Numbered from the stretch's first letter, positions 9,520 to 29,734 are shown. The stretch: 32,000 bases of DNA from Methanobacteriota archaeon (GCA_027064305.1 JAMOPY010000023.1:16569-48568); one strand, 5' to 3'. The notes: generated by a model not told the origin, from the letters alone. A program made the numbers and translations.

Positions 9520-9878
9520 CCTTGGCCGAGGGTGAGGGTGGGGACTACCACGTCGTGCTGGAGGCCGCGTGGATCGTGTACAACGTGGACAGCGAGGACG
9601 ATGCCATCAACATCGCCATCGCGGAGGCCGGCAAGCGCCTGAACCGCCACGGCCTGGACTACGTGGACATCGACGTGGGCTTCTTCGAGTGCCCGGAGTG
9701 CGGCGAGGAGATCGAGGGCGTGTGGATCGTGGCCAACACCGCGCTGGTCAGGCTCCTCCTCTCCATGCGCGTGTTCAACGCCGAGAACGAGGAGCACGCG
9801 ATCCGGATCGCGAAGTACGAGATCGGCCAGGCGCTGGAGGACGTGCCGCTCGAGGTCGTGGAGGTCACCCCGATCTAG
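9516..9878 (+). CDS. UPF0212 / DUF555 family protein with CPECG zinc knuckle
   Basis: [30 protein letters not shown]...ECPECGEE...[32 protein letters not shown] matches the archaeal UPF0212 pattern. GTGA overlap with dphB. Confidence 0.7.
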
Positions 9879-10990
9879 AGCCGGTACCGCGCGATCACGT
9901 GCCCCCAGATCAGGGACGACAGCAGGGTGAAGGTGGCCAGCGCGAAGGAGTTCATCGCCCGCGAGAACAGGAAGGCGCCGATCAGGGACTGGATGGAGAA
10001 CGCCATCAGGCACCCGAACAGCAGGGCCTCCCGCGCCGCCAGCTCGGAGGAGAACTCGTACCGCCGGCGCCCCACGTACTCGGACAGGCACCTCGACCCC
10101 ACGTACAGCGTGATCCCGACCCAGAGCGACAGCAGGAACGCGCCCACGTACCCGAAGTCGAACGCCCAGACGAACACGCCCGGGAGCATGTAGTCCAGCA
10201 GGTCCTTCCTCGCGACCAGCGCGCCGTGCAGCGTGGGCACGTTCAGGTTGAACATGACCAGGTACCCCACGGGCAGCGTCACGAACCCGTCCCCGAACCC
10301 GCACCAGTGGTAACCCGCCGGGAGAGACTTGGTGGAGTGGCCCACCAGGTACGCGTTCTTGCGGATGAAATCCAGGCCCGGCACGGTGTACTCCGCGAAC
10401 CGCTTCACCCGCAGCGCCGGGCTGAGCACCGGCTTGTTCAACACCCGAGCCGCCGCCTCCATCAGCAGCAGGAGCCCCACCCCGATCGCGGAGACCGCGG
10501 CGATCACCCGCCGACTCATCTGGCCCGCGCGCGCGGCGAGGGCCCCGATCCTCGTCCCCACCTCCAGCTGCCGCGAGATCAGGTACTCGGTCCCGATCCA
10601 GCAGAGCAGCCAGGAGAGCAGGTAATCCCGGTGCATCACGCCCCCGAAGATCCCGGTGAACAGCCAGAGCGTGTTCAGCACCGGCCGGGTTCGGCGGGCC
10701 GCCGAGATCCCGCGCGCCTCCAGCAGGCCGATCAGGTACCGGGCCGAGGCCCACGCGGCGAGGGTCAAGGGCCCGAACGGGTGCGTGAACTCGTGCCTGG
10801 GGAGGGGGAGGAACAGCGACAGCATGTCCACGAAGAACATCAGCATCAGGACGGCCAGGAGGAGGATGGACAGGGACAGCACGCGCTGGATGGTCACGCT
10901 GGAGTAGGCCAGCGTGAGCGGGACCACGGTGTGGGTCATCAGGAGGAAGTCCACCAGCGCCTCGCCCGTGTTGTGCGGCACCAGGTACAA
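9875..10990 (-). CDS. Polytopic membrane protein (about 8-10 TM) of unknown family, last gene of the cell-wall cluster
   Basis: Multiple long hydrophobic segments plus one large loop ([51 protein letters not shown]). The TTG start lies 1 nt after the upstream stop, behind GAGGGTGG. Confidence 0.65.
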
Positions 10991-10991
10991 G

Positions 10992-12263
10992 CTACCACCC
11001 TCTCACGCGCCGGTACATCAGCTCCCTGACGCACCCCAGCACGATCAGGGTGACGCCCAGGGCGGAACCCACCAGGCCCAGCGCGTGCAGCACCTCCGTC
11101 GGCACGGGCGACTTCATCGGATGCTTCTTGTACCCGCGGGGTAGCGGTCGCATGTACACGGTGACCACGTTTGCCTTCTTCTCCACCTTCACGTCGCTCG
11201 GCAGCACGTAATCGTACCCCAGCAGGGTGTTGTTGTCGATCGCGTTGTCGATGGCCCGCGCGATGTCCTCAGGATCCCGCTTCCCGTGCTGGATCAGCGA
11301 CTGCACGATCTCCACGATGGTCGCCTTGTCGTGGGGGCCCCGAACCCCGTACACGCGCACCACCGGCTGGTTCCGACGCACGGTGATCAGGTCACGCGCC
11401 ACCTGCCAGGCGTACTCGGTCTTCAGCGGCGACCCGCACACCGGGCACCGCGTGTACCGGGCCGCCGTCGGGAAGGGCGCGCTCCACCCGCACTTGGTGC
11501 ACGCCTTCCGGTACGGGGCGTCCATCGGGAACCCCCGCTCGTTGAGCCGGGCGGGCACGAACGTGTCACCGGTGGAGAGGCCGGCGGTGATGTTCACGGC
11601 GCCGCCCCCGTACTTCTCACCGGACTTCTTGGCCACGTACCCCATCACCCGGGCGAGCACCTCCGTCGCCGGCAGCCCGTCCCGGATCATGCGGCCCGCC
11701 ATGATCGCCGCCTCGACGCGGACCCTCGTCGCCGTACCGTAGAGCGGGTTGCCCGGCGTGTTACGCAGGTGAATCACCGCGCACTTCACGTTCGGGGGGA
11801 TCTTGACGATGTTCGGGCCCGAACCGCTGTGATACTGCCGAATGATGATCTTGTTCCCCTTCACGAGGACCACGGCGATGTCGTAGCTACCGCCCACCAC
11901 GATGCCCCGGCGCGGTCCACCCACCAGCAGTCGATCCGTGGGCGACTTCTCGATCCCGGCCCGCACCGCCTCCTCCAGGGGCATCCCCAGCTCCAGCCGC
12001 CGAATGCACGCCAGGATCGCCTCCAGTCGCGCGGTACCCTTACCCAGACCACCCGCCAGCACGGCCACGTGCAGCTTCTTGGACACGAGGAACGTGGACT
12101 GGAACATGTTGGGGGCGAACGACATCGAGCCCGCGGCCGCGCCGTTCGGATCCTTGCCGCTGGGGTCGGTGATGACGATCATGTTAAACGTGGCCGAGGC
12201 GGCCGAGGGAAGCGCGACGAGCAGGGCCAGAACCGCGATCCACCACCGCTCGATGGTCCCCAC
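10992..12263 (-). CDS. Secreted, C-terminally membrane-anchored protein: Ntn-hydrolase-like N-terminus + Cys4 zinc ribbon + unknown domain
   Basis: A Sec-type signal peptide (WWIAVLALLVALPSAASA|TFNMIVITDPSG) would expose Thr as the first residue. CTKCG...CPVCG forms a zinc ribbon. The C-terminal TM helix is LHALGLVGSALGVTLIVLGCV followed by basic residues. The GTG start follows GAGGGGG. Confidence 0.65.
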   Translation of the reverse strand: MGTIERWWIAVLALLVALPSAASATFNMIVITDPSGKDPNGAAAGSMSFAPNMFQSTFLVSKKLHVAVLAGGLGKGTARLEAILACIRRLELGMPLEEAVRAGIEKSPTDRLLVGGPRRGIVVGGSYDIAVVLVKGNKIIIRQYHSGSGPNIVKIPPNVKCAVIHLRNTPGNPLYGTATRVRVEAAIMAGRMIRDGLPATEVLARVMGYVAKKSGEKYGGGAVNITAGLSTGDTFVPARLNERGFPMDAPYRKACTKCGWSAPFPTAARYTRCPVCGSPLKTEYAWQVARDLITVRRNQPVVRVYGVRGPHDKATIVEIVQSLIQHGKRDPEDIARAIDNAIDNNTLLGYDYVLPSDVKVEKKANVVTVYMRPLPRGYKKHPMKSPVPTEVLHALGLVGSALGVTLIVLGCVRELMYRRVRGW

Positions 12264-12269
12264 GCCCCC

Positions 12270-12689
12270 TCAGCGCGGCAGTCCGTAATCCTCGGTCACC
12301 CGGACGACCACGACCCCCGACCTCTTGACCGTGATGTGGACCGACTTGATGGGCTTGATCTTGGTGCCCGGGATCACGCTACGCATGGCGTAGATCCGAG
12401 CCTTACGAATCGCCTCCTGCAGCGGGATGCGCTTACCGTCCGGGGTGATCAGGACCCCGTTCCGCACGACCGACCCCGGGCGCAGTCCCGCCGCCATTAC
12501 GTTGCTCCTCACCACCTCCTCGGGCAGGAAGTCGCACCCGACCACGTCCACGCCGATGATCCTGATCCCCTCCTGCTTGGGCAGCGGCCGGCTCGCCCAC
12601 GCCGTGTACTCGGACAGTCGGCCCAACGCGAACAGGAGCGCGCCCAGCAGCATGATGGCCAGGTTACGCCTCGACACCCTGACTATCAT
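12270..12689 (-). CDS. Bitopic membrane protein with FtsQ/DivIB-like POTRA domain (tentative)
   Basis: MIVRVSRRNLAIMLLGALLFALG gives a short N-terminus and one TM helix. IRIIGVDVVGCDFLPEEVVRSNVMAAGLRPGS...IKSVHITVKRSGVVVVRVTED resembles the FtsQ POTRA pattern (I.V.G...ls.eeV......g.......V.s..V.r..P..l.I.V.E). The ATG at 12689 follows GGGGGTGGTGGG. The longer track ORF start is Cys/Trp/Arg-rich read-through. Confidence 0.5.
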   Translation of the reverse strand: MIVRVSRRNLAIMLLGALLFALGRLSEYTAWASRPLPKQEGIRIIGVDVVGCDFLPEEVVRSNVMAAGLRPGSVVRNGVLITPDGKRIPLQEAIRKARIYAMRSVIPGTKIKPIKSVHITVKRSGVVVVRVTEDYGLPR

Positions 12690-14142
12690 CGCCCACCACC
12701 CCCATCTCCCGCAGGATCCTCCGGGCCGGCTCCATCCCCTGCGCCCCACCCAGCAGCACGACCGTGTCCTCATCACTGAGCTCCAGCGCCCGCTCCAACG
12801 CCTCCTCCAACCGCTCGAAGTGCTCCCAGCTCACCCCACCGCGCCGCAGCTCCTCCAGGAACGCCTCCCGCTCCTCCTCCCGCACCACGTTCGCCTCGTC
12901 CACCAGGCCCTTCGAATCCGTGACCAGGATGCGCACCTCCATCCCCTCCCGCTCCAGCTCCCGGGCCCCCTCCACCAGCGCCCGCGCGATCTCCCGGTTG
13001 ATCTCCGTCCCGCGCGACCCTCGGATGGCGAAGACGATCACGGCCCGGCCCTTACCCAGCCTCCTCAACGCTCGCACCGTCGCCAGGACGCCGTCCGGGT
13101 TGTGACAGAAGTCGTCCACGATCAGCGGGTCCTCCGACAACCGCTCGAACCGGCGCTTCAGCGGCCGGTACGTGCGCAGCCCCTCCGCGACGTCCTCCTC
13201 CCCCACGCCCAGTGCGTGGGCGGCCGCGGTCGCGGCGAGCGCGTTGTACAGGAAGTGATCCACCGGCAGCGGGAACTCCCGAACGGGGATCAACGGCTCG
13301 TCCTCCAGCAGGATCCACTCCTCCCCGTCCACCTCGCTGATCCGGGCGACGCCCTCCTCCCACCCGTACCACACCACGTCCGGCGCGAGCGAGGCCATCT
13401 TCGCCACGCGCTCATCGTCCGCGTTCAGCACCGCGACCCCGTCCTCCAGCGCCCGCACCACCCCGGAGACGGCCTCCGCCATCTCCTCCAGCGAGGAGAC
13501 CAGGTTCGTGTGATCCACGCCCACGTTCGTCACCACGGCCACCTCGCAGCCCAGCGCCCGGGCCATCCGGTACGCGTGATCCTCCATGACCCGGCCGGTC
13601 GGCAGGCCCTGCACCTCCGAGACCTCCACGCACAGGGCGTCCCGCGGCCGGGCCTCGCGGAGCTCCATCGCCACGACGGGATCGATGAGCGTGTTCTTCT
13701 CCGACCGGAAGTCCGTGTTGCAGTACACGTCCCGGCCCGCGACCCGCAGGATGTGCGCCAGCAGGTGGTTGGTGGTGGACTTCCCGTTCGTCCCCGTCAC
13801 GCACACGGTGACGGCGTCGGCCGCGTACCTCCGCTTCGCCAGCCGCAGCGCGTACTCGTTCGCCCGATCCACCTCCGTCAGCACGAGCGGCAGGTCGCGG
13901 CGCCGGCACTCCTCCCGGAGCCGCCCCCGGGGCTCCTCGGTGACCAGGCACGCCACGCCGCGCTCGTCCGCCAGCTCCGCCCCGCGCTCGTCGAGCCACC
14001 ACCGGATCACCACGTCCCCCTCGCCCGCCCGGCCGAGCGTGGAGAACCAGCCGCGGATCCTCCGCTCGGGGTCCCCGACGACCAGCCTCCCGTCCACCCG
14101 CTCGGCCAGCTCCCCCACGGTGAGGTCCAGCAGCGCGATCAC
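12664..14142 (-). CDS. Mur-ligase family peptide ligase (MurE/MurF-like; pseudomurein-type)
   Basis: P-loop VCVTGTNGKSTT, VVTNVGVDHT, VLNADD, HFLYNALAATAAA, RRFE and DDFCHNPDG give the full three-domain Mur ligase layout. GTGA overlap with the upstream MraY-like gene. Confidence 0.85.
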   Translation of the reverse strand: MIALLDLTVGELAERVDGRLVVGDPERRIRGWFSTLGRAGEGDVVIRWWLDERGAELADERGVACLVTEEPRGRLREECRRRDLPLVLTEVDRANEYALRLAKRRYAADAVTVCVTGTNGKSTTNHLLAHILRVAGRDVYCNTDFRSEKNTLIDPVVAMELREARPRDALCVEVSEVQGLPTGRVMEDHAYRMARALGCEVAVVTNVGVDHTNLVSSLEEMAEAVSGVVRALEDGVAVLNADDERVAKMASLAPDVVWYGWEEGVARISEVDGEEWILLEDEPLIPVREFPLPVDHFLYNALAATAAAHALGVGEEDVAEGLRTYRPLKRRFERLSEDPLIVDDFCHNPDGVLATVRALRRLGKGRAVIVFAIRGSRGTEINREIARALVEGARELEREGMEVRILVTDSKGLVDEANVVREEEREAFLEELRRGGVSWEHFERLEEALERALELSDEDTVVLLGGAQGMEPARRILREMGVVGDDSQGVEA

Positions 14143-15206
14143 CCCGCGAGCCAGAGGGCGATGCCCGCGCAGACGGCGCCGGCCATCCAGTGCAGCGCCA
14201 CCACGACCGGCTCGGGCAGGTCGTACTTGTACTGGAGGTGGTGATGCAGCGGCTCCACCGCGAGCTTGATCACGCCCGCCCGGTGCAGGAGGCTGATGAT
14301 CGTGGACCCGACGGGCACGCCCAGGGCGACGACGGCGGGCACCTCGATCTTGTAGTACAAGGCACCGGCCGCGTACGCGGCCCCCAGGAAGCAGCTGCCC
14401 GTGTCACCCATGAAGATCTTGGCCGGGTACCGGTTGTGGAACAGGAAGCCCAGGGAGGCGCCGGCGAGCGACGCGAAGAACGCGGCCCCGGGGAGCTGGT
14501 TGTGGACCAAGCACACCCCGGAGCACGCCAGAGAGGCGAGGAACAGCAGCCCCGCGGCCAGCCCGTCCATCCCGTCGATCAGGTTCACCGCGTTGGTGGC
14601 CCCGACCACGCCGAAGATCGCCAGCGGGTAGAACAGCCAGGACAGGTCGATCGCGCCGAGGTGCGGGAACCAGAGCCACGTGGCGGGCACGATGGGGAGC
14701 ACGAACAGGGCGGCCCCGGCCTGCAGCGCCAGCTTCTCCCGCTCGCTCAGCTCCTTCTTGACCGGGACCTCACCCACGATCTCGATCTTGTCCGGGGCCT
14801 CCCGCATCAGCCGCTTCAGGTCCCGCTTGGCCCGCTCCGTGGCCACGCGCGCCTCCTCACCGGGCTGCAGCACGAGCCGACCGATCCGGATCGGCTCATC
14901 GGAAACGTTCTTCACCACCTTCTGAAACTCCTTCACCTGCAGCCCGAGCAGGTCGTCCACCACGCCCAGCACCAGCATCGGGAGCGCCGAGGCGACCGGA
15001 GGGAGCGCCTGGATCGACACCAGGAGCGGCCCCGCGACCGTGCCCAGCAGGATCCCGAACCCTCCCATGATCGGCGTGCCGGCCTTGTGCGAGTGCTCCG
15101 TGACGATCGGACGGTCCACCACCCTGGCCTCCCGCATGTACCGGCGAAGCAGCCGCACGGTGACCCAGGACGTCACCGTGGAGATCGAGAACGTCTCCAC
15201 GATCAA
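14139..15206 (-). CDS. MraY-type polyprenyl-phosphate phospho-sugar/peptide transferase (GT4 family)
   Basis: DRPIVTEHSHKAGTPIMGG, LGVVDDLLGL, NAVNLIDGMDGLAAG, HNRYPAKIFMGDTGS and the MraY-specific EPLHHH motif are present. The TTG start follows GGGGAGGAG. Confidence 0.85.
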   Translation of the reverse strand: MIVETFSISTVTSWVTVRLLRRYMREARVVDRPIVTEHSHKAGTPIMGGFGILLGTVAGPLLVSIQALPPVASALPMLVLGVVDDLLGLQVKEFQKVVKNVSDEPIRIGRLVLQPGEEARVATERAKRDLKRLMREAPDKIEIVGEVPVKKELSEREKLALQAGAALFVLPIVPATWLWFPHLGAIDLSWLFYPLAIFGVVGATNAVNLIDGMDGLAAGLLFLASLACSGVCLVHNQLPGAAFFASLAGASLGFLFHNRYPAKIFMGDTGSCFLGAAYAAGALYYKIEVPAVVALGVPVGSTIISLLHRAGVIKLAVEPLHHHLQYKYDLPEPVVVALHWMAGAVCAGIALWLAG

Positions 15207-15222: not shown

Positions 15223-16362
15223 CTACAGGAACTTGCCGGCCTCCCTGATCCTCAACTCAAACTCCTTCTCCGCCAGCCGCACGTTCGCGCCCGCCGCCCG
15301 GAAGGCCGACCGCAGCCTCTCGAACGCCTCCTTAAACGATTCACCCCGGACGGTGATCCTCCCGGCCACGTCCATCCGGCCCCGGTACTCGTAGAACACG
15401 TGGTACGCTCCCCCGTCGAACCGCTCCCTAAGGGGCTCCCGACGGGACGCGTTCCACACCGGACACTCGATCGCGTGCCAGACCTTCCTGACCCGGGGCG
15501 GCCGCCAGCGCCCCACCACCATGTCCACGAGCTCCCGCAGCGGCCAGACTCCGGAACAGCCCGAGGTCATGTACCGCGTGCCGCTGGGCCGCGGGTTGAA
15601 CTCCAGGAACCAGAACTCATCCTCCCGCACCACCACGTCGAAGTCGACCGTCCCCTCCAGCCCCAACCGCTTCACGAGCCGAACCGCGCAGCGCTTGATC
15701 CCCCGCTCCACCGACCCGTCCAGCGGGGCCGGCGCCAGCCGCATCCGCTCGATCGGGTGATCCTCGTCCAGCGTCGAACCCTTGAACACCGGCACGAGCG
15801 GCACGACCTCCCCGTCCCAGGACAGCACCTCGATCGACACCTCCGCCCCCTCGACGAACTCCTCCACCAGCCGCCTCCCGTGCACCCGGGGCACCGACCG
15901 CTCGTACACGTTCACGTTGATCCCGGCCTGCGACCTCGGATCCTTCACCACGAGCGGCGGGCGCAGCCGGGGCCGCTCATCCTCCACCACCTCCCACTCC
16001 GGCGTCGGGATGTTCAGCTCCTCGAACGCCCGCTTCGCCCGGATCTTGTCCACCCCGGTCCGCGTCCCCTCCAACCCCGAGGCGGCGACGGGGATCCCCT
16101 CCGACTCCAGCCGCTCCTTCATTTCCGCCACCTCAAGCAGCGGATCGTCCACGCCGATGAGCGGGACCACCCCGTCCACCTCCCGCTCGAGCGCGATCCG
16201 CGCCGGGTGCTCCATGCCCCGGGGCACGAAGTGCACCTCGTCCGCCAGCTCCCAGTCCCAACTCTCCGGGTTCGACTCGGTCAGGATCCGGTACACCCCG
16301 GTGGACCCGGCGTACTCCGCCACGTCCCGGAACAGCCGGGCCCCCACGAACAGGACCCTCAA
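15223..16362 (-). CDS. ATP-grasp ligase (Ddl / CarB-like)
   Basis: KIRAKRAFEELNIPTPEW, PLVVKD, LVEEFVEGAEVSIEVL and WFLEFNPRPSGT show the ATP-grasp fold pattern. A TTG start at 16362 is inferred from the GGAGGAGGG SD and a TTGA overlap with the upstream stop. The track ORF start at 16593 is Gly/Arg read-through. Confidence 0.8.
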   Translation of the reverse strand: MRVLFVGARLFRDVAEYAGSTGVYRILTESNPESWDWELADEVHFVPRGMEHPARIALEREVDGVVPLIGVDDPLLEVAEMKERLESEGIPVAASGLEGTRTGVDKIRAKRAFEELNIPTPEWEVVEDERPRLRPPLVVKDPRSQAGINVNVYERSVPRVHGRRLVEEFVEGAEVSIEVLSWDGEVVPLVPVFKGSTLDEDHPIERMRLAPAPLDGSVERGIKRCAVRLVKRLGLEGTVDFDVVVREDEFWFLEFNPRPSGTRYMTSGCSGVWPLRELVDMVVGRWRPPRVRKVWHAIECPVWNASRREPLRERFDGGAYHVFYEYRGRMDVAGRITVRGESFKEAFERLRSAFRAAGANVRLAEKEFELRIREAGKFL

Positions 16363-17897
16363 CCCTCCTCCCCCAGCTCCTCCTCGAGCTCCCTCAGCAC
16401 GTCCTCCTTGAACTTCAGCGCCGCCTCCCCGAACACCACGATCACCTCGCACCCCGACTCCAACGCCGCCCGCAGCCCGTCCAGCACCTGCTCCCGGGAG
16501 GCGCCCAGCGTCCCCCGCTTCTCGAACCGCTCCGCGGCGCTCTCCGCCGCCACCACGTTGTCCGCCCCCACCTCCTCGAGCACCCGGTAGCACGCGTGCG
16601 AGGCCGCGATCACCCGGTCCGCGATCCGGGCCGCCCGCTCCAGGATCTCACGATCCCCCTCCGGGCCCAGCTCCGAGGCCACCGCGATGACCGCGCACAG
16701 GCGCCGGTCCGGGTACGCCTGCCTCAGGCACCGCAGGGTCGCCTCCACGCCCGCCGGGTTGTGACCGTAGTCGACGATCACCACCCGCTCCCCATCGTCC
16801 CACACGACGTCGAGCCGACCCTCCACCCCCTCGAACGAGCCGAGGGCCCGCGCCACCTCCTCCGGGTCCAGGTCCAGGAACTCGATGCAGACGGCCGCGG
16901 CCGCCACGGCGTTGTACACGTTATGCAGCCCCATCACGGGCAGGCCAACCTCGAACTCACCCTCCGGGCAGGCCAGCGTGAACCCGTCCAGAGAGACGTC
17001 CACGGCCAGGTAGTCCGGGGACGGCGTCTCCAACCCGCACTCGCACCGGAAGTCGCCCACCCACGGAAGGATCTCCCTCACCTCCGCCCGCCCACCGCAC
17101 CAGCACTCCTTCTCCACGGTCCCCACGGGCTCCGCCTCCACCCCGAAGTAAACGACCTCCCCCTCGAACCCCACCTCCTCCGGCGCGCCCACCACCAGCG
17201 GATCCTGCGCGTTCAGCACGGCCACCTCCACCGAGTCCGGCTCGAGCAGCTCGATCTCGCACCGCGCGTACGTCCGGAAGTCCCCGGCCTTGTTCAGGTG
17301 ATCCGGCGTGATGTTCGTCAGGCACGCGCACTCCACCTCCGCCCACCTCGCCGCCTCCAGGATCTCCCCCCGCTCCCCGAACGTCGCGATCTCCAGCACG
17401 CTCACGTCACCCGGCAACCGCGCCTGCAGCGGGGGCAGGTACCCCACGTTCCCCTGCATCCCCGGCAGCCCGTGATCCCGCACCTCCAGCCCCAGCTCCC
17501 GGCACACGTGCCGTATCATCGCCACGGTCGTCGTCTTCCCGTTCGTACCCCCCACGCCCACCACCGGCCGGGTGGGGGGAATCCGCTCGAGCACGTCCTC
17601 CACCTCGTACACCCGGCACCCGTACCGACGGGCCAGCCGGTACGGAGGTGACCCCTCCTCCAGGCTGGGCGGCGGGACCACCGCGTCCGCCCGCCGAAAC
17701 AGCCACTCCGGGTGGCCCCCCAGCACGACCTCCACGTTCGGGTACTCCAGCAGCGGGTCCAGCAGCTCGCACTCCTCCTCGTCCTTCACGTCCGAGGCGA
17801 TCACGTGGTAGTCCCGCTCCGCGAGCACCCGGGCCACCAGGTTGCACACGGGCCCGCACACGCCGATCACCAGCACCGTGCGCCCCTGCACGCGCAT
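16359..17897 (-). CDS. Mur-ligase family peptide ligase (MurD/MurC-like N-terminal Rossmann domain; Cys4 insertion)
   Basis: RTVLVIGVCGPVCNLVARVL (MurD-like domain 1), VGVGGTNGKTTT, LTNITPDHL, VLNAQD, GLHNVYNAVAAAA and VDYGHNPAG are present. The ATG at 17897 follows GAGGGGG. The upstream 332 aa of the 844-aa track ORF is out-of-frame read-through of the PP-loop gene. Confidence 0.85.
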   Translation of the reverse strand: MRVQGRTVLVIGVCGPVCNLVARVLAERDYHVIASDVKDEEECELLDPLLEYPNVEVVLGGHPEWLFRRADAVVPPPSLEEGSPPYRLARRYGCRVYEVEDVLERIPPTRPVVGVGGTNGKTTTVAMIRHVCRELGLEVRDHGLPGMQGNVGYLPPLQARLPGDVSVLEIATFGERGEILEAARWAEVECACLTNITPDHLNKAGDFRTYARCEIELLEPDSVEVAVLNAQDPLVVGAPEEVGFEGEVVYFGVEAEPVGTVEKECWCGGRAEVREILPWVGDFRCECGLETPSPDYLAVDVSLDGFTLACPEGEFEVGLPVMGLHNVYNAVAAAAVCIEFLDLDPEEVARALGSFEGVEGRLDVVWDDGERVVIVDYGHNPAGVEATLRCLRQAYPDRRLCAVIAVASELGPEGDREILERAARIADRVIAASHACYRVLEEVGADNVVAAESAAERFEKRGTLGASREQVLDGLRAALESGCEVIVVFGEAALKFKEDVLRELEEELGEEG

Positions 17898-17902
17898 CCC
17901 CC

Positions 17903-18922
17903 TCAGACCCGCGTCCCCGGGATCCTCCGACCGTACTCCCGCAACAGTTCCCGCATCAACGCCCGCGTCCCCTCCAGGAGCCTCCGGGCCGTCCCCTCGT
18001 CCCGCTCCACGGCGAGCCGGGGCAGGTGCTCGTACCCTAAATCGTCGACCCGATCGTCGATCTCGGAGTACTCGTAAAGCACCGCGTGCAGCTGCGCGAA
18101 CCGCTCCGTCCGCACGATCCGGTTCAACGTCCCGCTCAGGTACGACCGCAGCGCCCGCTCCAGGAACATCAGCAGCCGGTACGTGAGGTCGCGCACGATC
18201 TCTTCCTCGTCCCTCGGACCCTCCGGCACCCCACCCTCGAACACCCGGTGCAGCTCCAATCCCAGCCGCTCCTCCACCTCTCCCGCGTCCCACTCCGGGG
18301 TCTCCGTCTCGATCAGGTACTCCAGGCACGCCCGCGGCGAGGCCACTCGCTCCACCATCAGCGAGCAGGCGCGGCCCGTGAGCGGGTTGTACCCGACCCG
18401 CTCGATGAACCGGTGCACCCCGTAGGGTCGGATGGGGCACGTGTACCCCTCGTCGAACCAGCCCAGGCCCGAGACGATCTCGCCCACGTCCTCCCACGTC
18501 CACCGGCGCAGCGCCGGGTACCGGACCATCGTCACCCCGGGCGGGTACGGGTGCGCCACCCGCCGCCCGTACTTCCCCTTCAGCTCGTGGCCCGTGAGGA
18601 CCGTGAGCAGCCCCAGTCGCTTGGCCCGCAGGCAGGCGGCGGTCAGCACCGTCCGGGCGCACTTGGTGCAGATGGGCAGGCCGCGGCGCAGGGCGCGGCG
18701 GAACCACCCCCGCAGGCGCACCCGAACGAGCTCGTGCCTCAGCCCCAGCCGCTCCGCGCACCGACGGGCGTTCTCCAGGCACGTCCCGTCCAGGAACTCG
18801 TGCACGACCGTGACCGCCGCCTCCACCCGCCAGCGCTCGGACGCGTGCAGGGCCGTGGCCACGCTGTCCCGACCGCCGGAGAGGGCCACGCACGCCGGGT
18901 TGCTGGGATCAGTCGTGCGCAT
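17903..18922 (-). CDS. PP-loop (SGGxDS) ATP pyrophosphatase superfamily protein with helical C-terminal domain
   Basis: ACVALSGGRDSVATALHA is a canonical PP-loop. CTKCARTVLTAACLRAKRLGLLTVLTGHE resembles the adenine-nucleotide alpha-hydrolase core. The C-terminal roughly 150 aa is acidic, helical and unassigned. The ATG lies 14 nt inside the end of gltX. Confidence 0.7.
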   Translation of the reverse strand: MRTTDPSNPACVALSGGRDSVATALHASERWRVEAAVTVVHEFLDGTCLENARRCAERLGLRHELVRVRLRGWFRRALRRGLPICTKCARTVLTAACLRAKRLGLLTVLTGHELKGKYGRRVAHPYPPGVTMVRYPALRRWTWEDVGEIVSGLGWFDEGYTCPIRPYGVHRFIERVGYNPLTGRACSLMVERVASPRACLEYLIETETPEWDAGEVEERLGLELHRVFEGGVPEGPRDEEEIVRDLTYRLLMFLERALRSYLSGTLNRIVRTERFAQLHAVLYEYSEIDDRVDDLGYEHLPRLAVERDEGTARRLLEGTRALMRELLREYGRRIPGTRV

Positions 18923-27241: not shown

Positions 27242-28384
27242 TCACGCCTGCTCGACCTCCAGGCCCATGCCGAGGAGCTCCTGCAGTACCTCCTCGACGA
27301 ACCGGGCGTACCGGCCGCGCTGCCCCATGAACGGGCCGAAGTCCCGCCGGTCGATCCACACCTTCAGGTTCGGGCCCGCGATGTCCACGTCGACGATGCG
27401 CTCCCCGATCCACGGGACCGGGTGGATGTCCGCGATGAAGTCGATGAAGTCCAGCGTCAGGTGCGTGACGACGATCCGCATGTTCGTCTCCGCCTCGATG
27501 TTCTCGATCCGCTCGCCCCCCGTGCCGACCACCCGGCCCACGTGCCCCTCCTTGGTCACGATCACGGCCTGCGGCACGTTCTCCGTGTCGATCTCCAGGT
27601 CCTCGGCGATGGGCTCCACGTACAGGACCGTGAGCACGTCGGCGTCCGGCGCCTCCACCCGGACCACGTCCATGATCTCCCGCTCCACGTCGTTCAGCTC
27701 GCGGTTGCGGACGCGGATCTCCAGCTGCAGGTGCACGCCCCGCTCCGCGCCCGGCCGCACGATGTCCCGCGTGCCCAGGTCGATCACCGCGGCCTTGGGC
27801 TCCTCGGCCAGGATCTCCCGCATGACCGTCGCGCCGCACCGCTCCACGTCGATGTCCTTCTGGAAGACCGGATCGCCCGTGATCAGCAGGCGCGAGTTGT
27901 GACCCATCCGCGCCAGTACCTCGCCCGCGTTCTCCGGCAGCATGTTCTGAACCTCGTCCAGCAGGATCACGGCGTCGTCGAACGTGCGCCCCCGGACGAA
28001 GTGCGTGTCCACGATCATGATCTTCTCCTCATCGATCATCCGCCGGAGCTCCTTCCGCCCCGTGAACTGCGAGAGCACGTCCATCACCGGCGTGACGACC
28101 ATCTCCTCGAACTTCTCCGGCACGTCGGCGGAGCTCATCTCCTCCTTCGTCGCCACGTCCACGAGCGGCCGCGTGACGATGAACCGATCGTACTCGCCCT
28201 CCATCACCGCCTTCACGCCGTACGCGGCGCAGAAGAGCGTCTTACCCGTACCCGTCGGCCCGAACGCGGCCACGATCTCGTTCTCCTCGTCCAGCAGGGC
28301 CTCGTACAGCTCCTTCTGACCGTCCGTCTGGGGCTCCACCCCGAGCAGGTCCTCCACCATCCGCCGCGCACCCCCGGCCGTCAT
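27242..28384 (-). CDS. PhoH-like P-loop ATPase fused to two KH (RNA-binding) domains
   Basis: AAFGPTGTGKTLF (Walker A) and AVILLDEVQN (Walker B) follow the PhoH pattern. GHVGRVVGTGGERIENIE and GPFMGQRGRYARFVEEV are KH GxxG loops. ATGA overlap with the uppS stop. Confidence 0.8.
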   Translation of the reverse strand: MTAGGARRMVEDLLGVEPQTDGQKELYEALLDEENEIVAAFGPTGTGKTLFCAAYGVKAVMEGEYDRFIVTRPLVDVATKEEMSSADVPEKFEEMVVTPVMDVLSQFTGRKELRRMIDEEKIMIVDTHFVRGRTFDDAVILLDEVQNMLPENAGEVLARMGHNSRLLITGDPVFQKDIDVERCGATVMREILAEEPKAAVIDLGTRDIVRPGAERGVHLQLEIRVRNRELNDVEREIMDVVRVEAPDADVLTVLYVEPIAEDLEIDTENVPQAVIVTKEGHVGRVVGTGGERIENIEAETNMRIVVTHLTLDFIDFIADIHPVPWIGERIVDVDIAGPNLKVWIDRRDFGPFMGQRGRYARFVEEVLQELLGMGLEVEQA

Positions 28385-29160
28385 CTACCGAACCTTCGCT
28401 CCCGCTTCTGAAACTCCCGGATCGCCCGGAGCAGATCGATCTTGCGGAACTCCGGCCAGTACACGTCCACGAAGTACAGCTCGGAGTACGCGGAGTACCA
28501 CAGGAGGAAGTTACTCAACCGCTCCTCACCGCTCGTCCGGATGATGAGCTCCGGATCGGGCAGGTCACCCACGTAGACGTACTCGCGGAACGTCTCCTCG
28601 TCTATGCTGCGAGGATCGAGCCGGCCCGATTTAACGTCTTGGGCGATCTCTCGCACCGCGTCGATGATCTCCTGACGGCCCCCGTACGCCACCGCCACGT
28701 TCAGGAACCGCTCCGAGTACTCCCTCGTCGCCTCCTCCGCCTCCCGAATCGCCTCCCGCACCCGACGCGGCAGCAGGTGCAACCGACCCATCGCCCGCAC
28801 GGCGACCCGACGCCGATGAATCCGCTCGCTCCGGGCCAGCTCCCTGAACCGCTCCTCCATCAGGTCGAACAGATGACGCAGCTCCTCCTTCGGCCGGTTC
28901 AGGTTCTCGGTGGAGAGCGCGTAAACCGTGACGATCCTAACCCCGATGTCGAAGCACCATTCCAGCACCTGCTCCAGCTTATCCGCCCCGTACCGGTGCC
29001 CCTCCCAGGGCTTCAGCCCCAACTCGCGGGCGAACCTACGATTCCCATCCATGATGATGCCCACGTGCTCGGGCACCTTACCCCGACGCACCCTCCGCTC
29101 CAACATCCTCTCGTACATCTTATATACCGGCTTGAGGGAGGCCCGGACGACCTGCCTCAT
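28381..29160 (-). CDS. uppS: Undecaprenyl/polyprenyl diphosphate synthase (cis-prenyltransferase)
   Basis: PEHVGIIMDGNRRFA, VTVYALSTENLNRP, NVAVAYGGRQEI, PDPELIIRTSGEERLSNFLLWYSAYSELYF and WPEF are present. The ATG at 29160 was chosen by comparison with archaeal UppS N-termini (..LKPVYKMYE..). The track start is at 29271. Confidence 0.85.
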   Translation of the reverse strand: MRQVVRASLKPVYKMYERMLERRVRRGKVPEHVGIIMDGNRRFARELGLKPWEGHRYGADKLEQVLEWCFDIGVRIVTVYALSTENLNRPKEELRHLFDLMEERFRELARSERIHRRRVAVRAMGRLHLLPRRVREAIREAEEATREYSERFLNVAVAYGGRQEIIDAVREIAQDVKSGRLDPRSIDEETFREYVYVGDLPDPELIIRTSGEERLSNFLLWYSAYSELYFVDVYWPEFRKIDLLRAIREFQKRERRFGR

Positions 29161-29239
29161 CGCGCGACGCGGATTCACGGACGCGATGCGACCGAACGCG
29201 GACGTTAACCCCTCCCACCCCCTGACGGGGGTTGAACCG

Positions 29240-29734
29240 TTGATCGGGCTGATCTCGGACACCCACGACAACCTGCGAGCCGTGCGCGAGCTGGCGGACC
29301 GAATGAACGACGAGGGCGTCGAAGTCGTGCTGCACGCCGGCGACTACGTCGCTCCCTTCACGCTCCCCGAGCTCGCGAAAATCGACTGCGAGGAGTTTAT
29401 AGGCGTTTTCGGAAACAACGACGGGGAGCGCGATTTCCTCCGCGAGAAGGCGGAAGAGGTCGGCTTCAACCTGGTCGGCGAGGTCTTCACGGGCGAGGTC
29501 CTGGGACTGAAGGTCGCCATGGTGCACGGGACCGAGGAGGCCATCGTCGAGGCCCTCGCCCGCTCCGGCCAGTACGACGTGGTCGTCTACGGCCACACCC
29601 ACGAGCCCGAGGAGCGCCGGGTGGGCGACACCCTCGTCGTGAACCCCGGCGAGGCCTGCGGGTACGTGACCGGCCGCCGCACCGCGGCCCTCCTGGACCC
29701 CGACGAACGAACGGTCAAGCTGATCGAGTTCTGA
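29240..29734 (+). CDS. MJ0936/YfcE-type metallophosphoesterase
   Basis: IGLISDTHDN, VLHAGDYV, GVFGNNDGE, MVHG and VVYGHTHEP are the calcineurin-like phosphoesterase motifs. TTG start at 29240. Confidence 0.8.
   Translation: MIGLISDTHDNLRAVRELADRMNDEGVEVVLHAGDYVAPFTLPELAKIDCEEFIGVFGNNDGERDFLREKAEEVGFNLVGEVFTGEVLGLKVAMVHGTEEAIVEALARSGQYDVVVYGHTHEPEERRVGDTLVVNPGEACGYVTGRRTAALLDPDERTVKLIEF

Follow-up and report, generated by a model that had tools for sequence, protein, structure and literature searches.

The analysed stretch of DNA (hereafter the window) comprises 32,000 nucleotides of a Methanobacteriota archaeon (GCA_027064305.1 JAMOPY010000023.1:16569-48568). On the minus strand, directly downstream of a pseudomurein peptide ligase gene (pMurE), it contains a member of the Mfer763 gene family, the product of which very probably consists of a hydrophobic N-terminal helix and a single extracytoplasmic domain of the POTRA fold. 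The gene and the two parts of its product are as follows.

12270..12689, minus strand: Mfer763-family gene, 139 amino acids (aa) plus stop codon (open reading frame and translation, NCBIfam NF053641, and homologues)
12588..12689, minus strand: N-terminal segment, residues 1-34, basic (R4, R7, and R8) with a hydrophobic helix; either retained as a signal-anchor or cleaved as a signal peptide
12282..12569, minus strand: POTRA-like extracytoplasmic domain, residues 41-136 (AlphaFold2, Foldseek, profile, and hhalign)

The G+C content of the window is 70%, and many spurious long open reading frames (ORFs) are present on both strands, so that an ORF alone proves nothing; the real genes have a third-position G+C of 0.85-0.98. 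The ORF at 12270-12689, which had been singled out by an initial annotation made from the sequence alone, is a genuine gene and is conserved. As described, it lies on the minus strand, all three peptide stretches quoted in that annotation are found in its translation, and the 139-aa product is matched over residues 1-136 by the NCBIfam model NF053641 (‘Mfer763 family’; model positions 1-135 of 137) at an E-value of 4.4e-47 and 159.7 bits, just below the strict equivalog cut-off of 170. In total, 615 homologues were found at E ≤ 0.001 with a mixed-profile search, and all source-named entries among the 120 matches listed were from Methanopyrus or Methanobacteriales. The mixed profile was required to reach the Methanobacteriales homologues, a single-sequence query being insufficient: a word-indexed search with the window protein as the sole query returned five close Methanopyrus homologues and nothing else. 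A pattern scan of genome contigs gave matches in two Methanopyrus-like metagenome-assembled genomes (MAGs) only. Long repeat proteins that were matched by the Methanopyrus profile (P0006, P0014, P0016, and P0018) contain plectin, WD40, or Ig repeats and were discarded as compositional false positives.

We assign the start codon to the ATG at 12689 because the homologue alignments begin at residue 1 (MIVRVSRRNLAI in the window and MFIKIRRDTLII in Methanobacteriales). An upstream GTG at 12776, which would yield a product of 168 aa, was rejected, since the additional residues would be encoded within pMurE and are absent from the closest homologues. An internal start at Met13, which would remove the helix and with it the membrane segment assumed in the initial annotation, was also rejected because residues 1-12 are conserved. 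At the other end of the protein, the Methanobacteriales homologues carry extra C-terminal tails, which are short and of low complexity only.

The two genes that follow pMurE were named Mfer763 and Mfer764 by Subedi 2021 (PMC10117817), who found Mfer763 next to pMurE in 29 genomes, and the Mfer763 family corresponds to OG0001162 of Lupo 2025. It has been published as always located downstream of pMurE, confined to methanogens that contain pseudomurein, and without known domain. The window gene resembles the members of this family (OG0001162/NF053641) in its length, its position after pMurE, and its restriction to pseudomurein archaea. Our literature search returned no paper connecting pseudomurein genes with a POTRA or FtsQ-like protein, and, to our knowledge, POTRA domains have so far been described in bacteria and organelles. 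While the gene family and its synteny were already known, the fold assignment appears to be new, i.e. that of a stand-alone POTRA domain in archaea, as does its pairing with a putatively signal-peptidase-activated ectoenzyme that is predicted to resemble N-terminal nucleophile (Ntn) hydrolases.

An AlphaFold2 model of Mfer763 was built on a 61-sequence alignment and has a mean predicted local distance difference test score (pLDDT) of 90.5, with values of 92-97 in the domain. In this model, the N-terminal helix and a short linker are followed by a β1-α1-(hairpin insert)-α2-β2-β3 arrangement (β 46-50; α 57-66; strands 74-76, 79-81, and 87-89; α 90-102; β 114-121; and β 126-133). The core POTRA order, β-α-α-β-β, is retained, and a β-hairpin plus a strand are inserted between α1 and α2. 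A Foldseek search against PDB returned POTRA-containing proteins throughout ranks 1-25 (FtsQ, BamA/YaeT, cyanobacterial Omp85, CdiB, and Toc75), five FtsQ entries being included. The top match was FtsQ of the FtsQLB complex (8hhf_Q; E = 0.039, probability 0.96, 127 aligned columns), and the root-mean-square deviations were 3.0 over 95 columns for YaeT (2qcz) and 3.1 over 89 columns for FtsQ (6h9o). The individual E-values are weak, yet the list of matches is uniformly POTRA.

Searches with sequence profiles led to the same fold. BamA accounted for five of the eight matches of the full family profile against PDB sequences (best E = 7.4e-4, POTRA2) and for seven of the eight obtained with the domain-only profile (best E = 4.5e-4, POTRA2). 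In hhalign, the start of the domain falls on residue 92 of Escherichia coli BamA, which is the POTRA2 boundary (span 92-130, P = 3.8e-4). The Pfam POTRA model PF07244 gave weak matches (E = 0.08 at best, below threshold) in 6 of the 61 members. Because the structural matches and the sequence profiles agree independently, the POTRA fold is well supported, and, judged from the predicted model and the profiles, it is very probable that Mfer763 carries it. This part of the initial annotation was borne out: a predicted fold unlike POTRA would have overturned it, and the fold obtained is β-α-(hairpin)-α-β-β. Polar residues that are invariant in the domain (D53, R70, T82, T109, E133, and D134) point to a putative specific binding surface.

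The segment ahead of the domain was modelled as one continuous helix (residues 7-33, pLDDT about 97), which runs through a putative cleavage site. An A-x-A|S-S motif is conserved there at residues 30-34 (A30, 92%; A32, 98%; and S33, 95%). L19, G23, and Y28 show no variation, R24 is conserved at 98%, and the hydrophobic stretch ahead of the conserved G23-R24 continues without interruption for only ∼13-14 residues. The basic N-terminus is consistent with an N-in topology. Pairwise identities among Methanobacteriales are 87% for residues 1-34 of Mfer763 and 72% for its POTRA domain, versus 36% for the clear signal peptide of Mfer764 and 69% for the ectodomain of the latter. A retained signal-anchor is favoured because a targeting peptide that is discarded should not exceed the rest of the protein in conservation. 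On the strength of this conservation pattern, we give slight preference over cleavage to the interpretation that the segment is a retained signal-anchor making specific membrane contacts.

A twin-arginine-like sequence, S-R-R-N-L-A-I, is located at residues 6-12 (12654-12674, minus strand) in the Methanopyrus proteins, and its RR pair is kept in Methanobacteriales (I-R-R-D-T-L). Export of Mfer763 by the twin-arginine translocation (Tat) pathway, for which SRRNLA and a Tat call by SignalP for Methanopyrus KOL6 were considered, is unlikely, the motif being weak in Methanobacteriales (IRRDTL). These methanogens have, moreover, been reported as lacking TatC.

The neighbouring genes of the pseudomurein cluster, all on the same strand, are listed below.

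9875..10990, minus strand: polytopic membrane protein of 371 aa, next gene downstream of Mfer764 (ORF; OG0000796 of Lupo 2025)
10992..12263, minus strand: Mfer764-family gene, 423 aa as listed (NCBIfam NF053642, E = 7.8e-162)
12664..14142, minus strand: pMurE, pseudomurein peptide ligase (NCBIfam NF053648, E = 6.7e-169; Pfam Mur_ligase_M and Mur_ligase_C)
14139..15206, minus strand: MraY-like glycosyltransferase family 4 (Pfam PF00953, E = 2.3e-34)
15223..16593, minus strand: ATP-grasp enzyme, Ddl/CarB-like (Pfam ATP-grasp_3 and Dala_Dala_lig_C)
16359..17798, minus strand: second pseudomurein Mur-type ligase (Pfam Mur_ligase_M and Mur_ligase_C on 16362-17798)

The Pfam and NCBIfam matches confirm the Mur ligase (pMurE), MraY-like, and Ddl-like genes that the initial annotation had placed upstream of the 139-aa ORF. 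pMurE is directly upstream of Mfer763, and the end of its reading frame and the beginning of Mfer763 have 26 nucleotides (nt) in common. The order ATP-grasp, MraY-like, pMurE, Mfer763, and Mfer764 is kept in the Methanobacterium, Methanobrevibacter, and Methanopyrus loci; together with the 29 genomes reported by Subedi 2021 (PMC10117817), this establishes the conservation next to a Mur ligase that the initial annotation had proposed to examine. At their junction, Mfer763 and Mfer764 share 4 nt in Methanobacterium and 1 nt in Methanobrevibacter; in the window and in Methanopyrus SNP6, gaps of 6 nt and 19 nt, respectively, lie between them. The GTG start listed for the ATP-grasp gene is probably too far upstream, the homologue in the Methanopyrus SNP6 locus (L006) being 379 aa long. 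The mechanical ORF of the second Mur-type ligase extends to 18893, which is a spurious extension; the homologue in L006 has 512 aa. The 371-aa membrane protein has no match in Pfam, NCBIfam, or PDB sequences, and its position is the same in Methanopyrus SNP6. Its group, OG0000796, is specific to pseudomurein archaea and was described as clustered in Methanopyrus only (Lupo 2025); the protein could be a flippase or polymerase candidate.

Mfer764 consists of a variable signal peptide, a large ectodomain that starts at Thr25, a Cys-rich ribbon (CxxC...CxxC), and a C-terminal transmembrane (TM) anchor. The best Foldseek match of its AlphaFold2 model (pLDDT 84.7) is circularly permuted Taspase1 (E = 1.6e-6 to 1.8e-5), and weaker matches to proteasome β, Anbu, plant asparaginase, and bile-salt hydrolase are also of the Ntn-hydrolase fold. 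In every homologue examined, a Thr directly follows the (A/S)-x-A signal-peptidase motif (T-C/F/M-N-I-I-V-I-T-D-P), so that, after cleavage by signal peptidase, this Thr would be residue 1 and would open the first core strand. This arrangement parallels that of circularly permuted Taspase, which begins at its nucleophile. The Ntn assignment has two results to reckon with, in that PP2C phosphatases, which are likewise α-β-β-α sandwiches, also match the model (E = 1e-3 to 1e-2), and the Mfer764 profile gave no link to any solved Ntn hydrolase among PDB sequences.

In the literature, pseudomurein cross-linking is without an assigned enzyme, and transglutaminases have merely been postulated. From the predicted structure, it is plausible that Mfer764 is a candidate ectoenzyme for the cross-linking or trimming of pseudomurein. 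Ntn enzymes that act as transpeptidases are known, among them γ-glutamyltranspeptidase and Connectase (PMC7980362), an archaeal relative of proteasome β. Mfer764 would share with such transpeptidases the predicted α-β-β-α Ntn-like fold and a Thr that is N-terminal after processing. It would differ from them in the exposure of the nucleophile, which is predicted to occur by signal peptidase and not by autoproteolysis, and it has no sequence similarity to a solved Ntn hydrolase.

Conserved small or polar residues are present in the membrane segments of both proteins, namely G23 and R24 in Mfer763 (12591-12671, minus strand) and, for Mfer764, G396, Q399, T400, and G403 of its C-terminal helix (10995-11099, minus strand). 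This conservation would fit packing between the putative TM segments of the two proteins.

Based on these features, we propose, with about even confidence, that Mfer763 is a membrane-proximal POTRA adaptor for the candidate cross-linking ectoenzyme Mfer764. The N-terminal hydrophobic segment would target Mfer763 across the membrane and most likely tether it there in an N-in/C-out orientation, placing the single POTRA-like domain ∼8 residues above the membrane. The POTRA domains of FtsQ and Omp85 act as docking modules for partners. By analogy, Mfer763 may be a non-catalytic docking module for partner proteins or peptides, which it could bind, for example, by β-strand augmentation. The most probable partner would be the translationally coupled Mfer764, which Mfer763 might dock, regulate, or present with substrate. 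Mfer764 itself would be a C-terminally anchored Ntn-fold ectoenzyme with its Thr25 nucleophile exposed by signal-peptidase cleavage, and the two proteins would constitute a membrane-bound, outward-facing module for late steps, after those of pMurE and MraY. Retention of the anchor, physical interaction of Mfer763 with Mfer764, catalysis by Mfer764, and any role in septation are what we infer. Because the part that defines FtsQ is absent, Mfer763 more probably acts together with the wall enzyme encoded next to it than as a division protein in the strict sense.

Several observations weigh against a tethered POTRA protein. A Pfam scan of the Mfer763 protein and its 61 homologues gave no family at threshold, the three-strand insertion in the domain is foreign to canonical POTRA, and the published SignalP analysis classified the N-terminal segment as a cleavable signal peptide (Sec/SPI in four of five species, and Tat/SPI for Methanopyrus KOL6) and predicted 0 TM (Lupo 2025). 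The first two of these, the Foldseek E-values above 0.01, and an unusually large number of invariant polar residues, which suggests a ligand site rather than a generic scaffold, would fit a POTRA likeness that is convergent or a modelling artefact; the domain would then be a small, lineage-specific α/β module of unrelated function that binds, for example, a glycan or a lipid carrier directly. We consider this quite improbable, given that all 25 of the top 25 structural matches are POTRA proteins, that BamA POTRA2 is matched by the sequence profiles precisely at the boundary of the domain, and that the domain was modelled at a pLDDT of 92-97. The SignalP call, if right, has the consequence that Mfer763 may be soluble outside the cell. 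A Sec signal peptide would then be cut at A32|S33 to release a 107-aa POTRA domain between membrane and wall, which could chaperone or bind pseudomurein precursors or Mfer764. The conserved A-x-A|S-S motif and the short hydrophobic run before G23-R24 are in line with such a secreted protein; it is hard to reconcile with the invariant L19, G23, and Y28 and the 98% conserved R24 that a targeting peptide should be discarded, and no other part of the protein is conserved as strongly as this segment, which was modelled with high confidence as an unbroken helix across the putative cleavage site. A soluble protein is, on balance, rather unlikely and yet deserves more weight than an artefactual fold. 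As for the initial annotation, the short basic N-terminus was found and the helix is predicted, whereas its TM character is itself a prediction and is not shared by the published SignalP analysis.

The initial annotation had also interpreted the gene as a possible archaeal FtsQ/DivIB analogue at the position of ftsQ in bacterial dcw clusters. Mfer763 and FtsQ/DivIB do share a short basic N-terminus, one N-terminal hydrophobic helix, a membrane-proximal outer domain of the POTRA fold, and a gene position at the far end of a cluster of Mur ligase, Ddl-like, and MraY genes, which is loosely like that of ftsQ after ddlB. A true homologue or equivalent would be a bitopic divisome scaffold that brings pseudomurein synthesis to the FtsZ/SepF ring, and it may have originated from a bacterial ftsQ that was transferred with mur genes and lost its β-domain later; archaeal Mur ligases have been inferred to be bacterial in origin (Lupo 2025). 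In addition, the best Foldseek match is FtsQ of the FtsQLB complex, its 127 aligned columns exceeding those of every other listed POTRA match, and hhalign aligned residues 37-116 with residues 50-131 of E. coli FtsQ, the POTRA region, in a sensible register. That alignment, however, is not significant (E = 0.43), FtsQ is absent from the profile matches to PDB sequences at E ≤ 10 while BamA is present, and POTRA_1 (PF08478) gave no Pfam match in the Mfer763 protein or the 61 homologues. Mfer763 stops at residue 139, six residues past the last POTRA strand, and therefore lacks the FtsQ β-domain (FtsQ_DivIB_C, PF03799), which is the part that binds FtsB/FtsL. The protein is about half the size of FtsQ/DivIB, without the corresponding binding surface, and differs from it further in the extra β-hairpin insertion and in an anchor that may be cleaved. 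The order in E. coli is ddlB-ftsQ-ftsA; the window gene, in turn, lies between pMurE and Mfer764 and not, as in a dcw cluster, between ddl/murC and ftsA-ftsZ, and no division gene (ftsA, ftsZ, or sepF) turned up among those window ORFs that were scanned or in the related loci L003 to L006. PSI-BLAST found no FtsQ, FtsL, FtsI, or FtsW in pseudomurein archaea, from which no FtsL/FtsB has been reported (Subedi 2021, PMC10117817).

Because the β-domain, a significant FtsQ match, and a following ftsA-ftsZ are all lacking, Mfer763 is not to be placed in FtsQ/DivIB, although its predicted architecture of basic N-terminus, helix, and POTRA domain is similar to that of the N-terminal half of FtsQ. Similarity to Omp85-type POTRA is the sole significant one in sequence comparisons, and a functional analogy to FtsQ as a scaffold is possible. 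A true FtsQ/DivIB homologue or equivalent is improbable. We attach slightly less credence still to the more specific scenario in which Mfer763 would be a truncated descendant of bacterial ftsQ and would constitute, with Mfer764, an archaeal equivalent of FtsQLB-FtsWI, the module for septal wall synthesis; if it were true, a POTRA scaffold would couple the FtsZ/SepF ring to a pseudomurein transpeptidase that is not a penicillin-binding protein and uses a threonine nucleophile. With the POTRA repeats of Omp85/BamA/TpsB (PF07244), Mfer763 has in common the β-α-α-β-β core and the sequence similarity to BamA POTRA2. It differs from them in being a single domain and not a tandem array, in the absence of a β-barrel, in its probable tethering by an N-terminal helix, and in its occurrence in a monoderm archaeon without an outer membrane.

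Mfer763 and Mfer764 have been known as conserved ‘hypothetical’ members of the core cluster since 2021. Their predicted folds make them concrete, testable candidates for the extracellular steps of pseudomurein synthesis, to which no proteins have been assigned (polymerization, cross-linking, and the tie to growth and division). A conserved archaeal POTRA domain in a wall-synthesis operon also bears on the question of which bacterial wall machinery is shared with, or was transferred to, archaea. As both proteins are predicted to be exposed to the outside and occur specifically in Methanobacteriales and Methanopyrales, they are possible inhibitor targets in gut or rumen methanogens.

Immediately upstream of the second Mur-type ligase, a 339-aa protein is encoded at 17903-18922 (minus strand), with weak matches of the PP-loop ATPase type (LarE, QueC, and Asn synthase; E = 1e-4 to 0.06). 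The corresponding position in Methanopyrus SNP6 is likewise occupied (L006, 2731-3735), and the protein may serve the cluster as an accessory enzyme for amidation or adenylation. A prenyltransferase of the undecaprenyl-diphosphate-synthase type (Pfam PF01255, E = 3e-82), which may supply the lipid carrier, is encoded at 28381-29271 (minus strand), ∼16 kb from the pseudomurein cluster. As to its origin, the window stems from a relative of Methanopyrus and not from the M. kandleri with which it was compared: its Mfer764 protein is only 78% identical to a protein annotated as Methanopyrus kandleri, and the closest DNA locus (L001) is from a MAG labelled ‘Methanobacteriota archaeon’, with 97% protein identity.
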